A stretch of 6,028 bases of DNA, from IMG/VR virus record IMGVR_UViG_2534681627_000017. One strand, 5' to 3'. The position numbers and the translations under genes were made by a program. Shown here in pieces: positions 1 through 6,028 of the stretch (positions are counted from its first letter, which is position 1; every line of letters begins with the position of its first letter). This stretch comes from a virus (Duplodnaviria; Heunggongvirae; Uroviricota; Caudoviricetes). The notes under the pieces were generated by a model. The model was not told the origin of the DNA. It searched no databases and worked only from the letters and a program-made list of their open reading frames with translations.

Positions 1-116
1 GGCAGACCTGTATGAGGCGGAATATATGCGTCACCTTCACCAATAAATTCATTAGTTCCGGCCAGCAGATTATAAATTTTTATGGTCCGTGGTTGTTCAC
101 TCATTCTGAATGCCAT
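1..116 (-). CDS. tfa: Tail fibre assembly protein Tfa, N-terminal 39 codons only; gene continues past the window start
   Basis: Minus-strand ATG at 116..114 opens a frame reading [39 protein letters not shown], which matches the lambda Tfa N-terminus as I remember it. The ATG overlaps the stf stop codon (TAATG, shared base at 116). Not in the ORF track because it is cut by the window edge. Confidence 0.8.
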
Positions 117-3100
117 TATGCAAGCCTCACAATGTAGTTAAATGCGATGTTTTTGACGGTGTTTTCCGCGTTACCAGCAGCGTTAACGGTGATGGTATGT
201 CCATGTGAACCAATCGCAACGGAGTGCGTATGAGCACCAATACCGACAGTATGTGCGTGTGCACCTGCGCTTGCAGCAGTACCCGATACAGAGTGCGTAT
301 GAGCGCCTGCAGAAGAAGTGTTAACACTGTATTTAGAATAATCAGGTGATCCACTTCCCGGAGCACCACTGGAACCACCTGAAACAAATGTCATCGAATG
401 GGTATGTGCACCGGCTGAAGCAGCCGTACCGCTAACACTATGGGTATGCGCACCAGTGTTATTCGTGGATTTAGTGCCGTAATCAAACGACGATGTGGTT
501 TTCGTCCCCAAATCAGTACTGGATGCGCTGGCGCTGTGGGTATGCGATTTTATGCCGTCCTGTTCCTGAGACAATACGGCACGACCACTGGCGGGCTTGC
601 CCTTAATCGTCCAGCCACGCATATCAGGGATCACGCCTGACGGATAAGCGGCTGCAAGTTTCGGGTAGGCAGATTTGTCAAAAGTCTGCCCCTGCATCAG
701 GGCATAACCAGACGGAACGGTATCTGATGGCCACGGGATTGGTGCGCCGACTGGGTAGCTTTCTGGTGGAAGATTTTTCGAGGTATAAACTTCTGCCCAG
801 CCTTCCTCAAAACCATAGCCATCTCTTGAGGAACGGTAGAACAGACCTCCATTTCTGTAATGCGCCTTCATCTGCAGGGTCCGGCAACTTCCGACTCCGG
901 TATAGAAGTTAACCAGAATATAGGTGTCGCCAGAGCGGGTGACATTGTAAGCGCCTGATTCGGCATTCCAGGGAACGCCACCATCCGCATCGGCATATGT
1001 ATCCGTTGCCCTTCTGGCAAAAGCAGCCACATGCGCGGCGGTTAAAGTGATATCAGTAGAACCATCAAATGGAACACCGGATATTTTTCTTGCAGTCTGA
1101 AGTTTTGTAGCAGTTGCAGCATTACCAGTGGTGTTCTGATTACCCGTAGTGTTTACACCTGGAAGGTTAATATTTGCAGAACCGTCGAAAACAACTCCAC
1201 CGATAGATCTTGCCGTCTGCAATTTCGTGGCTGTACTTGCATTACCATTCAATGAACCAGTTAATCCACCTGTAACAGACAACGGACCTGAAACTGTTCC
1301 TCCGGTTGTTGGCAGTGCTCCAATATCTAACGGCGTCGGTTTCTGATGTGTGCTATACATCGTATAAACAACACCATCGGTAACGCTGGAAGGCTTACTC
1401 GCTGAATATGTTGGCGATGTATAAATAGAAACTGTCGCATTTGCAGTACAATCCCAATGGATATTTACACGAGTCGCATAATTGCCAATCTCAACGTAAA
1501 TATCATATGTATCGCCGGATGTGTTGATCCAGGCGAAATTCGTTAATCCGACGGCTGTACGCTTCCACAAAGCCCCGGTAATTCCTTTGGGGTTTCCATT
1601 GCCTGCTCGTAGAACCAGTTCTGAAATGCCTGCCTGATGTGGGGAACCGACGTTGTAACCAGCGCCACCAATCAATGCGATGTAAACGATGGAACTCGCT
1701 TGTGGCATGGTAACCGTAGCCAGTTTGAACCACCCAGCCCCGCCAGAGAAAGACATCGTTACTGAATTTAAAGTACCAATATCTTTCGGCGTTAATGTTA
1801 TATCCGCAGTCAGTGCTTTTCCGTTAACTTTTCGGTTAGATGGCACCCTGCTATTCGCATTGTCATTGGCTGCTTTAACTGCTTTTGGCGTTGCGGCCAG
1901 CGATTCACTGATGCTATCAACAGCACTGCTAAGTTTCACAACACCTTTAGTTGTAAGGCTTGCGTCTTCCATCGCAACTGCATCGGCAATCTCTTCAGCA
2001 CGATCAGCAGCAGCTTCCGCACGGGTCGCAGCGGATTCAGCAGCAGTTTTGCTCTGAGATGCTGCCGTCGCACTGCCTGCCGCCTCTGTTGCTTTCGTGG
2101 ATGCCGTCGTGGCGCTGCCCTTCGCTGCTGACGCCTGTCTGGTCGCCTCATCTTTTGAAGCAGACGCAGATGATGCCGATGACGCTGCCGAACTGGCGGA
2201 CGATGCGGCTGCCGTTTTTGAGGATTCTGCACGGGTTTCCGACGCTTTCGCATTCGTTTCGGATGTCTTCGCTGCGGAAGCAGACCTCGCTGCTGCGCTG
2301 GCCTGTACAGCGGCTTCGCCAGCCTTCGTTGTGGCTGTTGAAGCGGACGATGCAGCACTTTCTGCCGATTTTCCGGCGGCGGTGGCACTGGCTGAGGCCT
2401 GCCCGGCACTTGTTGACGCGGCACTGGCAGACGACGCAGCCGCTGTTTTTGAGCCTGCCGCAGCTGAGGCACTCTGTCCCGCTGCCGTTTCAGAAGCCTT
2501 GGCGTTCGTCTCGGACGTTTTTGCCGCCTTCGCAGAATTTGCTGTCGCCGTTGCCGAGGAAGCTGCGCTGCTGGCGCTCGAGGCTGCGCTCGTTTCTGAT
2601 GATTTTGCCGCCTCTTTTGAAGCCGACGCATCCCGGGCTGAGGTGGCAGCTTCTGACGCTTTCGTGGTCGCGGTGGATGCTGAAGTGGCTGCTGATTGTT
2701 GTGACGCTGCCGCATTCGTTTCTGACGTTTTTGCCGCAGCGGCACTGGTGGCCGCCGCGCTTTTTGAGGACTCTGCAGCGGCAGCACTTTTTGATGCTTC
2801 AGTGGCCTTTGCTGATGCCGTTCCTGCGCTGGAAGACGCTGACTGAGCCGACGAAGCGGCCTGTCCGGCTGACGTGCTGGCTGCGCGTGCTGAGCCTGCA
2901 GCATCAGTCGCATGGGTTGCCGCCTCACGTGCTGATGTGCCGGCATCGCTGGCTGACTTCTTCGCGGCTGCCGTGTTCTGTGCCACCGCGGACGCGTTAC
3001 GCGCCACCTCTTCCACCATCAGTTCAAAACGGCGCAGTGCCTCAGGACGGGCATCATCCTCCGTCATGGCACCGAGAAAATCATTCAGCGTACCGGGTCG

Positions 3101-3343
3101 GGAATCTTCATACACGGTGATGGTCCCGGCATGTGACGGCGGGAATCCCTCCACCAACAGAATAACGCTGTACTGACCGTACTCAACGTCCATGCTGTAA
3201 CGCCCGGCTTCATCCGGATTTTCTGAGGCCAGCGTGTTCACCACCACCGTGGTGCTGTTACGTTTTGCTTTCAGCTGGATTGTGCAGTTCTGTACCGGTT
3301 TTCCTGTGCCGTCTTTCAGTACACCTGAAATCTTTACTGCCAT
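116..3343 (-). CDS. stf: Side tail fibre protein Stf, long mosaic variant (~1075 aa)
   Basis: ORF track 116..3349 (1077 aa from a GTG). I place the start at the ATG at 3343..3341 because the product then begins [26 protein letters not shown], as in lambda Stf, and a GGGG run sits 5 nt upstream, whereas the GTG has no spacing to it. The C-terminus ([40 protein letters not shown], HxH repeats, ending [22 protein letters not shown]) is the T4 gp37-like tip of lambda-family Stf. Two [12 protein letters not shown] phage tail-fibre repeat units lie at aa 706-770. Confidence 0.9.
197..553 (-). repeat. Coding array of seven His-x-His motifs in the Stf C-terminal tip
   Basis: Translation contains SHTHS, AHTHS (x4), AHAHT and SHGHT, separated by Gly/Ser/Ala/Thr-rich spacers; the unit GTAASAGAH(T/A)H recurs. 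Matching imperfect DNA repeats (gtgcgtatgagc / gtatgtgcacc) are visible on the + strand. Confidence 0.7.
1970..3001 (-). repeat. Ala/Ser/Thr-rich low-complexity repetitive shaft region of Stf (aa ~117-460)
   Basis: About 340 residues composed almost entirely of A, S, T, K, E, Q and G. The motif AAKTSETNA occurs three times (aa 205, 275, 359; nt 2737..2711, 2527..2501, 2275..2249), with ~20-bp imperfect DNA repeats on the + strand at about 2712-2734, 2505-2526 and 2258-2280. Confidence 0.75.
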
Positions 3344-3354
3344 ATTCACCCCAC

Positions 3355-3380
3355 AAAAAAGCCCGCCTGAACCGGCGGGC
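3355..3380 (-). terminator. Putative rho-independent terminator between lom and stf
   Basis: On the minus strand: GCCCGCC-ggttca-GGCGGGC (7-bp GC stem, 6-nt loop; 3380..3361) followed directly by TTTTTT (3360..3355). It lies 28 nt after the lom stop and 12 nt before the stf ATG. Confidence 0.55.
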
Positions 3381-3407
3381 TGTCATAACACTGTGTTACC
3401 TGGCTAA

Positions 3408-4007
3408 TCAGAATTTATAACCGACACCCACGATGAAACCGTCAGTGCGCCAGTCACCACTGCCGGAGCCTTCATAAGCAATATCAATGGCCACGGATTC
3501 GGTCGGGTTAAACTGCACGCCAGCCCCCCACGCCAGAGACGTGTTGCTGTGGCGACCGTCATCACTTCCGGTCAGCACATCGTGCTTTTTCCCCTTGTTG
3601 TCAGTTACGCGGAGATAATCCCCGGAGAAAGTCGACACGCGGCTGTAAGCCACACCCGCCATCGCATACGCGCTGAACCATTCATTCACGCGCACAGACG
3701 GCCCCGCCATTACGCTGAACCAGCGGTTACGAACGGAATCTTCATGCCAGCGGGTATCGCTGTAACGGGTCAGCTGGCGATTCTTGTCTCCTGCATAGCT
3801 GAATGACGTCACCAGCCCCAGTGTGTCCGTAAACTCATAACGGTATTTCACGTTAATCCCGTTCAGATCATCGCTGCCGGGGACGTTCGTCGAGGCATGA
3901 AGATAGCCCGCGCTCAGCGTGGACTGATGTTCAGACGCCCATGCAGGCGCACCGGATACGGCCAGACAAATGGCTGCGGACAAAATGGCGGCATAAAGTT
4001 TACGCAT
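3408..4007 (-). CDS. lom: Outer-membrane protein Lom (Ail/Lom/OmpX/PagC family beta-barrel)
   Basis: 199-aa ORF with a typical signal peptide (MRKLYAAILSAAICLAVSGAPAWA | SEHQ) and a C-terminal aromatic residue (..GVGYKF) as expected for an outer-membrane beta-barrel. The sequence is near-identical to lambda Lom as I remember it. A GAGAGGT Shine-Dalgarno sits 5 nt upstream of the ATG at 4007. Confidence 0.9.
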   Translation of the reverse strand: MRKLYAAILSAAICLAVSGAPAWASEHQSTLSAGYLHASTNVPGSDDLNGINVKYRYEFTDTLGLVTSFSYAGDKNRQLTRYSDTRWHEDSVRNRWFSVMAGPSVRVNEWFSAYAMAGVAYSRVSTFSGDYLRVTDNKGKKHDVLTGSDDGRHSNTSLAWGAGVQFNPTESVAIDIAYEGSGSGDWRTDGFIVGVGYKF

Positions 4008-4031
4008 AATTACCTCTCGCTTTTCTGCAAT

Positions 4032-4055
4032 AAAAAAGGCGTCATTCCTGACGCC
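4032..4055 (-). terminator. Putative rho-independent terminator or attenuator hairpin just upstream of lom
   Basis: Perfect 7-bp inverted repeat ggcgtca / tgacgcc (+ 4038-4044 and 4049-4055) with a 4-nt loop, followed on the minus strand by TTTTTTA (+ 4032-4037 is A6). The + strand has a weaker T-rich tail (cTTTaTT), so it may act in both directions. Confidence 0.5.
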
Positions 4056-4077
4056 CTTTATTGGGGTTATAAATATT

Positions 4078-4273
4078 TCAACGAATACTGATGCCGGAAG
4101 CGGCTTTTTTCATCACCACAACCAGCAGAGTCGCTGATACTGGTTGTTGGTGTCCCCTGATTGCCTTTCTGGAAAATACGTTAAACTCCAGTGTCAGCTT
4201 CCCCTGCCACTCGGCATATCAATAACTGCACTGTAACTACCGGGAATGGCCCCTTTAGTTTCTCTGGATGCGA
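4078..4273 (-). pseudogene. Out-of-frame remnant of the J 3' end (J-like C-terminal coding sequence continuing in two shifted frames)
   Basis: Downstream of the J stop at 4274, minus-strand coordinate frame 2 (open 4337..4197) reads ..[37 protein letters not shown], and coordinate frame 0 (open 4218..4081, stop 4080..4078) reads ..QGKLTLEFNVFSRKAIRGHQQPVSATLLVVVMKKAASGISIR*. These resemble the lambda J C-terminus as I remember it (..NGAVIY..SRIVDMPAGRGNVILTFTLTS..VQVMVIKKQALGISVV*). Confidence 0.55.
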
Positions 4274-6028
4274 TTAATACGCCGTTTTTGCGAACTTCAA
4301 AACCATAACCCAGGTTGAATACCAGTATGACTGTTGGTTATTTCCGCTCCCCGGATCGTCATACGCTATACCGTTAAAAATAATGGGCGGAATAATAATC
4401 TGGCGGTCAAAGTTATGATCATCGCTGATGGTGACTGTAACCGTACCGTTTGGTGTTTCCGTGTTACCCCACGTACCGACTTTTTTCGGGAAGGCTTTTG
4501 ATACAGCTTTAACGAAATCTCCTCTGACCTGGGTCGCCTCCAGCATGCCCTTAATCGTACAGTTCTGGTTAATCGTGACATTGTTGAGCGTTCCTGAGTT
4601 CGCATTCACACTGCCACTGATATCCGCATTTTTCGCCGTCAGTCTCCCGTCTGATGTCAGGGAAAATGCCGGAGGATTACCGCCGCTGGTAATGGTGGGG
4701 GCCGTCAGGCGTTTCAGGAACACTTCATTCATGAATATCTGATCGCCCTGACCAACAAACATCGGCTTTGTGTTGCCATTCGCAGGATTAATCATCGCAA
4801 TCCTGTCTGCTGCCAGCAGCACCTGACTCTGCATGCCGTCAGGGGTGTTCTCAATACCGGCACCGATACCCGCAATATAAAGGCGTCCGTCCTGCATCTG
4901 CTGCAGCTTCACAGCCCACATGCTGTTCAGGTTATTATTTGTATCAACCTGAACCTTCTGTATCTGCTGGATCGCTGCACTCTGATCTTCCAGTTTCTTA
5001 TTAACGGTCTGTGTGATTTCATTGCTGACATCCGTTATGGACGTCCTGATTTCAGTCAGGTCAGGCGCAAGCTGACCGTTATCAATCTGCGTCCACAGCT
5101 CCTGAGCCAGATGGGTTTTCCCTATCTCGCCTTTGAAAAAATCCAGATAGCCTGATGCATCATCACTCGGCTGACCGACAGCCTCCACGAATGCCGATTT
5201 GCCAACGGTGTTCACACTGCGAACGTAAAAATAATAATCATGGCCCGGTTTGATATTGATACTGGCGGCTATCCAGTACAGCGCCGTACCAAGATAGCGC
5301 GCTGTGGTTTCAACCTGCCTGATATCCGCAATCCGCTTTTCCGAGAACCAGAACTCAAACTGTACCGTCGGATCATAAACCGCAAGATGCGGCGTGGCGG
5401 TTATCTGAAAATACCCCGGTGTCAGCTCAATCTGCGACGGCGCTGCCGGTGCGGCAATCCGGAACGATACCGATGCCGGATCGCCCTGCTGTCCCCACGC
5501 ATTTACTGCCCGGACCGTCAGCGTGTAACGCCCCAGCGCCAGTTGTGTGAAGCGGTATGTGGTTTCCGCCGTCCGGGCTGTGCTGACCAGCCGCTCACTG
5601 CCGTCATCCGCTGCCACGGTCAGGCGAAGCATAAAGCTCACCCCCTTCACCACCTTCGGCGTGTCCCAGCGGGCCAGTACCTGATATTCCCCGCTGTCTG
5701 CGGTGACTTCGGCAGTCAGGTGCTGCACCGCTGGCGGCGTGACACCATTCACCGTGCCGCTCTGGTCGCCGTCAAAGTGCGCCCCGTTATCCACGATGGC
5801 CTCTTTTTCCGGTACATGCTGCACGGCGGTGATGGCATACATACCGTCGTCGTTCTCACGGATACTCACGCAGCGGAACAGGCGCTGGCGCAGCGTCGGC
5901 AGCTTCAGCCCCCACACGCTGTATCCGGCAACGCCGTCAGGAACACGGCTCACTTTTACCTTCACGCCGTCGGTGACGGACTGGACCTCCACGCTGACCG
6001 GATTGCCACTTCCGTCAACCAGGCTTAT
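4274..6028 (-). CDS. J: Tail tip / host-specificity protein J (central tail fibre), 3' portion; 5' end beyond the window; 3' end apparently truncated by frameshift
   Basis: The frame is open from the window edge at 6028; the track ORF 4274..5992 begins at an internal GTG. The translation (..[84 protein letters not shown]..) is collinear with lambda J as I remember it. The in-frame C-terminus ends ..KFAKTAY*, roughly 64 residues earlier than the homologous sequence runs. Confidence 0.88.

Follow-up and report, generated by a model that had tools for sequence, protein, structure and literature searches.

A lom gene probably inserted behind a predicted J-distal terminator of a lambda-like prophage, with a predicted terminator of its own

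The lom gene has been known since 1979. In phage lambda it is regarded as a lysogenic-conversion gene (PMC7067206, PMC3594210, PMC1151598), and lom expression in lysogens has been reported (PMC7067206, PMC1151598); a microarray study of lambda lysogens did not detect it, and its transcription in lysogens has been described as poorly understood (both PMC2147009). The passage of PMC9836094 that cites Liu et al. 2013 describes lom as strongly expressed in the lytic cycle. Genes of the moron type are defined by the possession of their own promoter and terminator (PMC3594210). Among phages with a described lom locus, 434 (OL657226) and mEp460 (JQ182728) are 93% identical in DNA to the locus studied here over the J end, lom and the start of stf, and their GenBank records carry terminator features, themselves predictions, at positions exactly homologous to the two hairpins that flank lom. 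Both hairpins are therefore already marked publicly as rho-independent terminators in near-identical phages. Phage 434 differs in a compensatory stem variant of the upstream hairpin (GGCACCA/UGGUGCC), and J is intact in 434 and mEp460, whereas the J end examined here contains frame breaks. Neither hairpin is annotated in the lambda record NC_001416. Candidate terminators distal to J are reportedly listed in the lambda sequence papers.

In the window (the whole 6,028-nt stretch of DNA that was analysed) the elements follow one another as J - tJ - lom - tlom - stf - tfa, where tJ and tlom are the upstream and downstream hairpins and every gene lies on the minus strand (Table 1). This DNA forms the last part of the late (tail) operon in a lambda-like prophage. 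The segment is 93-96% identical to numerous phages of the lambdoid coliphage type, and identity reaches 98% with prophages carried in E. coli chromosomes. The order J - lom - stf - tfa is annotated likewise in related lambdoid phages and prophages, and the arrangement is already known, in a very common prophage type. The J-lom gap of 70 nt holds tJ and the lom-stf gap of 64 nt holds tlom; there are no other intergenic gaps in the window. The start of stf agrees with that annotated in homologues, its ribosome-binding site (GTGGGGTGA) directly adjoins the tlom T-run, and the tfa start codon (114-116) overlaps the stf stop codon within TAATG. A permissive Rfam search gave three sub-threshold matches to isrG, an Hfq-binding sRNA of Salmonella prophages, at 2002-2759 on the plus strand, opposite the Ala/Ser-rich stf repeats, with 21-29 bits against a gathering score of 100; these probably reflect common tail-fibre repeat sequence and not an RNA gene.

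Table 1. Positions of the genes, predicted terminators and lom-associated segments in the window.
Feature	Position	Strand	Sequence or basis
tfa, 5' part (tail fibre assembly gene)	1-116	minus	annotated homologue in E. coli STE15
stf, side tail fibre gene, with ribosome-binding site	116-3354 (ATG 3341-3343, stop 116-118)	minus	Pfam phage_tail_N, Collar, Phage_fiber
tlom, predicted intrinsic terminator of lom	3355-3381 (stem-loop 3360-3381, T-run 3355-3360)	minus	AGCCCGCC-GGUUCA-GGCGGGCU
lom 3' trailer, 26 nt, stop codon to terminator	3382-3407	minus	sequence comparison
lom, 199-aa precursor of an Ail/Lom-family outer-membrane beta-barrel	3408-4007	minus	intact ORF, Pfam PF06316
Putative lom signal peptide, codons 1-24	3936-4007	minus	inspection
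lom leader GCAGAAAAGCGAGAGGTAATT, 21 nt	4008-4028	minus	contains Shine-Dalgarno; identical in nearly all related loci
tJ T-run TTTTTTATT	4029-4037	minus	comparison with empty sites of Tritos and 1H12
tJ stem-loop, predicted J-distal intrinsic terminator	4038-4055, extendable to 4035-4058	minus	GGCGUCA-GGAA-UGACGCC
J, homologous stop codon TGA	4078-4080	minus	three-frame translations, alignments to intact J genes
J, 3' part (tail-tip / host-specificity gene)	4078-6028	minus	Pfam Ig_J, Ig_J_second, Phage_Tail_Tip; alignments to intact J

The end of J is broken by frame switches over its last ~85 codons (about 4080-4335), and the reading frame as present stops at 4274. The receptor-binding domain is correspondingly incomplete, the Pfam Ig_GpJ_C match reaching just positions 1-47 of the 135 in the profile. 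This stretch of the minus strand is a patchwork of two J allele families, in which an STE15-like (E. coli) backbone is interrupted by short patches identical to the L015/L010 type; it is the patches that switch the frame four times (1>3>2>1>2) and so produce both the early stop and the truncated domain match. This version of the J end was found in none of 5,426 complete E. coli genomes, the best match reaching 90.5% identity across 88% of this stretch. The patchwork could stem from gene conversion in short patches between co-resident prophages or from an assembly chimera.

The lom product was placed in the Ail/OmpX/PagC family by the first-pass annotation, and this placement is borne out by a match to Pfam PF06316 (Ail_Lom) that covers positions 1-199 of the 199 in the profile (402 bits against a cut-off of 23, E 5.9e-121). 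Relatives with solved eight-stranded barrels include Lom itself (PDB 9wso_C, E 1.9e-49), OmpX (1qj8/1orm, E 1e-18) and Ail (3qra, E 2e-17); the 9wso chain, named "Outer membrane protein lom", is the 206-aa lambda allele. The gene has its own Shine-Dalgarno sequence and apparent signal peptide, as had been noted: GAGAGGT lies at 4012-4018, 4 nt upstream of the ATG, and the N terminus of the product (MRKLYAAILSAAICLAVSGAPAWA, followed by SEHQ) resembles, by inspection, a Sec signal peptide: it opens with basic residues, continues into a hydrophobic core whose mean Kyte-Doolittle value is 2.05 and carries the cleavage motif A-W-A. The signal peptide would export Lom to the outer membrane, where members of the family may mediate adhesion or serum resistance. 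Because matches to the NCBIfam equivalogs for complement resistance and OmpX fell below their cut-offs, no specific function is assigned to this Lom; an adhesion phenotype is reported for lambda Lom only (to buccal cells, cited in PMC3594210). Its description as a candidate for lysogenic conversion agrees with the lambda lom literature cited above. Copies 95-99% identical to this one occur in 144 phage records searched by tblastn. The related-locus search used a single Lom protein and returned only copies at least 97% identical, which served to collect stem variants, and the more distant contexts discussed below came from the tblastn search of phage records.

The observation that lom is flanked by GC-rich hairpins with T-tracts was confirmed, with coordinates correct to within a base or two. 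The tJ stem consists of 7 bp, five of them GC, closed by the GNRA tetraloop GGAA and extended by G.U and A-U pairs to the outer limits given in Table 1; its folding energy is -14.5 kcal/mol and the U-run 3' of the stem reads UUUUUUAUU. The upstream hairpin had been correctly positioned, but the distance of 25 nt given between it and the lom ATG needs adjustment: the segment TTTTTTATT ends 21 nt before the ATG and its six-T run ends 24 nt before it. The tlom stem has 8 bp, seven of them GC, and a 6-nt loop, folds at -17.6 kcal/mol and is followed by TTTTTTGTGGGG, the U-run in the transcript being UUUUUUGU; it begins 26 nt past the lom stop codon, and 11 nt separate the end of its T-run from the stf ATG. 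When a perfect stem, an energy of -14 kcal/mol or better and a good T tail were all required, the window yielded exactly tJ and tlom, and 40 dinucleotide shuffles yielded no site at all; a loose consensus scan returned 7 sites in the window against 6.4 expected from shuffles and hence no enrichment. With 200 nt of nascent RNA upstream included, the probability that each hairpin forms is about 1, the pair probabilities of tJ being 0.93-1.0. By these predictions tJ and tlom have the anatomy of intrinsic (Rho-independent) terminators in the direction of transcription. The tJ element has an A-run on its 5' side besides the T-run on its 3' side; it also scores as a terminator on the plus strand (4029-4064), where GGCGTCATTCCTGACGCC is followed by CTTTATTGGG, and it may be bidirectional.

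Among about 300 fetched loci the tJ stem occurs as GGCGUCA/UGACGCC, GGCACCA/UGGUGCC and GGCGCCA/UGGCGCC, together with one U.G intermediate and rare mismatch-bearing recombinants. In an alignment of 15 distinct tJ sequences two pairs change on both sides, and 90% of cells pair, compared with 35-61% when the partner is slid; this covariation score was reached by none of 500 shuffles. The conservation evidence for tlom is weaker, its substitutions being confined to the loop or to changes that retain G.U pairing. The U-runs of both hairpins are invariant in the relatives. Because the stems are kept through compensatory or pairing-preserving changes, the hairpin structures are under selection. In locus L012 and three occupied junctions the tJ loop GAAA is replaced by its reverse complement, TTTC, on the same stem, a change suggestive of an inversion of the palindromic hairpin.

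A search with the N terminus of stf led to lambdoid phages in which J directly precedes stf, namely Tritos (OV696610) and 1H12 (NC_049947). These phages share with the window the J end, the tJ hairpin and T-run, and the ribosome-binding site and start of stf, but have neither lom nor a second terminator, and so represent the empty site. Their J-stf spacer runs from the J stop codon through TTATAACCC.., GGGCGCCAGAAATGGCGCC (or the GGCACCA variant), TTTTTTATTT and GTGGAGTGA(G/A)TATG (stf). An exact-pattern scan of IMG/VR contigs found 86 such empty J-tJ-stf junctions, or 88 with Tritos and 1H12, and a lom end lay within 1.5 kb of just one of them; occupied junctions numbered at least 120 in the exact-pattern scan and at least 204 altogether among the fetched IMG/VR loci. 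Both tJ stem variants are present in empty as well as in occupied sites. Because lom-less phages have the same hairpin and T-run between J and stf, tJ is best assigned to the backbone as its predicted J-distal terminator and is not part of the lom unit. The earlier description of lom as a self-contained cassette bracketed by hairpins does not hold in this respect, since tJ stands in 88 junctions that lack lom. Judged by this comparison, the insert is composed of GCAGAAAAGCGAGAGGTAATT, lom, 26 nt and tlom, and of the two hairpins only the downstream one came with lom. The left junction of the insert falls after TTTTTTATT, at the 3' end of the tJ T-run, and the right junction falls within the tlom T-run, before GTGGGGTGAATATG. 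The geometry of the insert in lambda equals that in the window, and insertion therefore predates the divergence of the two lom alleles.

Several loci depart from these two states. In an alignment of lambda with the window (columns about 640-814), identity is ~60% over most of lom and rises to near-identity from the last ~100 nt of the gene through tlom into stf; because this step lies inside the 3' end of lom, a recombination (mosaic) boundary between lambda and the window is placed within lom and not at the hairpins. In IMG/VR locus L080 (about 1440-1500) the end of an IS4-like transposase gene falls within the 5' arm of tJ, and in L083 (about 1445-1500) an IS66-like transposase gene ends a few bases beyond the T-run, with the first 4 nt of the lom leader replaced; J is not adjacent to lom in either. 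Locus L219 (3800-6800) carries a tandem duplication in the order complete J, tJ, a first lom copy, a J fragment of 241 C-terminal aa, tJ, a second lom copy and stf, and its two lom copies differ from one another at several residues. The lambdoid phage PhiR12_2_star has a different terminator just 5' of stf. In Yersinia phage PY54 (L095, 166-1188) an unrelated gene for a 340-aa "membrane protein" lies between J and stf, and because a different membrane-protein gene occupies this place, the J-stf junction seems to be a place where accessory envelope genes recur.

Late transcription in lambda suggests how tJ and tlom might operate. Q-modified RNA polymerase is known to read through terminators. 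In lambda a single Q-dependent transcript of about 27 kb covers the late genes (PMC10695390). By analogy, during lytic growth Q-modified polymerase from PR' would ignore tJ and tlom, and lom, stf and tfa would thereby make up the last part of the ~27-kb late mRNA, whereas in the repressed prophage the two hairpins would act on unmodified polymerase only. There tJ would block stray transcription arising inside the tail genes from entering lom and stf, and tlom would end any lom transcript ahead of stf and tfa. The empty sites show lom with its leader, trailer and tlom to be an accessory insert at the 3' end of the tJ T-run. The most satisfactory explanation, which we consider probable, adds to this that both hairpins are ordinary Rho-independent terminators bypassed by Q-modified polymerase and acting on the unmodified enzyme in the lysogen. 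Both the termination and the Q read-through are deduced here, because the basis is the sequence together with lambda biology. The suggestion that the upstream hairpin terminates transcripts that have not been antiterminated is the best-supported reading of that hairpin. Against this insulation model, lom is reported to be expressed in lysogens and yet no promoter was found downstream of tJ; the model leaves lysogen expression of lom unexplained unless tJ is leaky or the promoter unconventional. If, moreover, the late operon is silent in the lysogen because transcripts from PR' end at tR', it is hard to see what selective advantage two more terminators inside it would bring, and they could have been conserved for a different reason, RNA stability for example.

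A textbook moron, by comparison, would be an autonomous lom unit with a dedicated promoter overlapping or just upstream of tJ, the upstream hairpin serving as an insulator for lom. Besides the expression of lom by repressed lambda prophages (PMC7067206, PMC1151598), this would fit the report that lom expression in Phi24B is independent of induction (PMC3342100), and lom is indeed polymorphic for presence and absence at one site (J-tJ-stf versus J-tJ-lom-tlom-stf) and has its own 3' terminator, tlom, inside the insert. What is missing is the 5' promoter. The insert extends only 21 nt upstream of the ATG, which leaves no room for one, and a consensus scan found no minus-strand promoter between J and lom. 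A position-weight scan for sigma-70-like sites, with a spacer penalty and an extended -10 bonus, likewise found nothing above background in the J-lom gap and the final 600 nt of J, whether of the window or of lambda; the best sites in those 600 nt score 7.2-7.3, under about a dozen same-strand sites elsewhere. The hexamer TATAAC, 6-8 nt upstream of tJ, is conserved in two families of J ends, which would favour a promoter there, but it lacks the critical last T and a -35 partner and is present in lom-less phages too. It was rejected along with the -10-like hexamers that overlap the T-run (TTTATT and TATTGC; TATTAT in lambda), which are without a -35 partner or critical bases. The GC content of lom (0.56, against 0.536 for J and 0.534 for stf) is not distinct, and the upstream hairpin exists without lom. 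A fully autonomous unit of this kind is thus unlikely. Of the classic moron layout claimed by the first-pass annotation, the presence/absence pattern and the predicted terminator stand, while the sigma-70-type scans of the insert and the adjoining J end gave no promoter and the base composition is not deviant; lom would be a classic moron in part only. Any promoter active on lom in lysogens would lie outside the insert, and it is not identifiable from the sequence.

In lambda-type phages lom might lack a promoter altogether and be expressed in lysogens by polymerase that leaks through tJ from weak starts inside J, or the hairpins might be chiefly RNA stability or processing elements; taken together we hold these possibilities to be distinctly unlikely. 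Were either true, the upstream hairpin would control how much of a lysogenic-conversion protein is made rather than merely insulate lom. In the second of them the hairpins would act within the read-through late transcript, as barriers to 3' exonucleases or as protective 5' stem-loops after endonuclease cleavage, and would set the separate stabilities of J, lom and stf-tfa, with the stopping of polymerase secondary. Such a role would accord with stems that are kept by compensatory change though Q-modified polymerase should ignore them, with loops that are GNRA tetraloops (GGAA or GAAA), with the placement of each hairpin exactly at a cistron boundary, right 5' of the next ribosome-binding site, and with the strong lytic-cycle production of Lom given in the passage of PMC9836094 mentioned above. 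The near-ideal U-runs (6 U) on both hairpins, however, are unneeded by a stability element and are invariant across the variants, and such a role is in any case compatible with termination and not mutually exclusive with it; as the chief function of the hairpins it is very improbable. The proposal that the upstream hairpin is a regulated attenuator of lom, acting through an antiterminator fold or a leader peptide, draws on the position of the hairpin 24 nt before the start codon and on the need of lom for some route of expression in lysogens, but is scarcely credible given the pair probabilities already cited, obtained in 200 nt of nascent RNA where no alternative fold competed, a 93-nt context fold that is not unusual (z = -2.0), no Rfam family at threshold (the only nearby one, Trp_leader, scores 21.7 bits with E = 0.65, its gathering score being 41, and falls on tlom and not on tJ), no leader-peptide ORF or room for one, and the same hairpin before stf in phages where lom is absent.

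With lom read as an accessory insert behind tJ, the findings have little import beyond correct annotation. The refinement lies in the comparison of empty and occupied sites, which assigns one hairpin to lom and the other to the tail operon and puts both junctions in T-runs, and a promoterless insert bears on how lom is transcribed in lysogens. For annotation there is a warning that a gene flanked by hairpins is not automatically a complete moron.

Further known systems place this insert in context. An Ail/Lom-family gene is also found in the short-tailed Stx phages (the VT2-Sakai, POCJ13 and Phi24B group), where it is likewise followed, about 24 nt past its stop codon, by an intrinsic terminator whose stem, CCCGC/GCGGG, is similar; unlike in the window, the protein identity is 31-41%, the neighbouring genes are others, and the 90-117-nt AT-rich spacer upstream contains no terminator. 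The small RNA 24B_1 of Phi24B, located "between lom and vb_24B_43" (PMC4426718), belongs to this short-tailed context, is reported absent from lambda and was set aside as irrelevant to the present locus. The morons of HK97 and HK022 (HK97 gene 15; Juhala et al. 2000), as portrayed in the account given in PMC3594210, resemble lom as extra genes in the late or tail operon that are absent from close relatives, have their own terminator and encode an envelope protein useful to the lysogen; they differ in their defining internal promoter, of which the scans described above found none here, and in their deviant GC content. In lambda (NC_001416, 18965-19585) Lom differs in its length of 206 aa and is about 46% identical to the protein described here, and the upstream stem is CGUCCG-GGAA-CGGGCG, weaker at -9.0 kcal/mol, while the place, loop and U-run of that hairpin are the same. 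The arrangement is otherwise that of the window, with J followed by a hairpin and T-run, a leader of about 21 nt with GAGAGGT, lom, a 26-nt trailer, a second hairpin and T-run, and stf (orf-401), and the two are nearly identical over the final ~100 nt of lom and on through the trailer and tlom to the start of stf.
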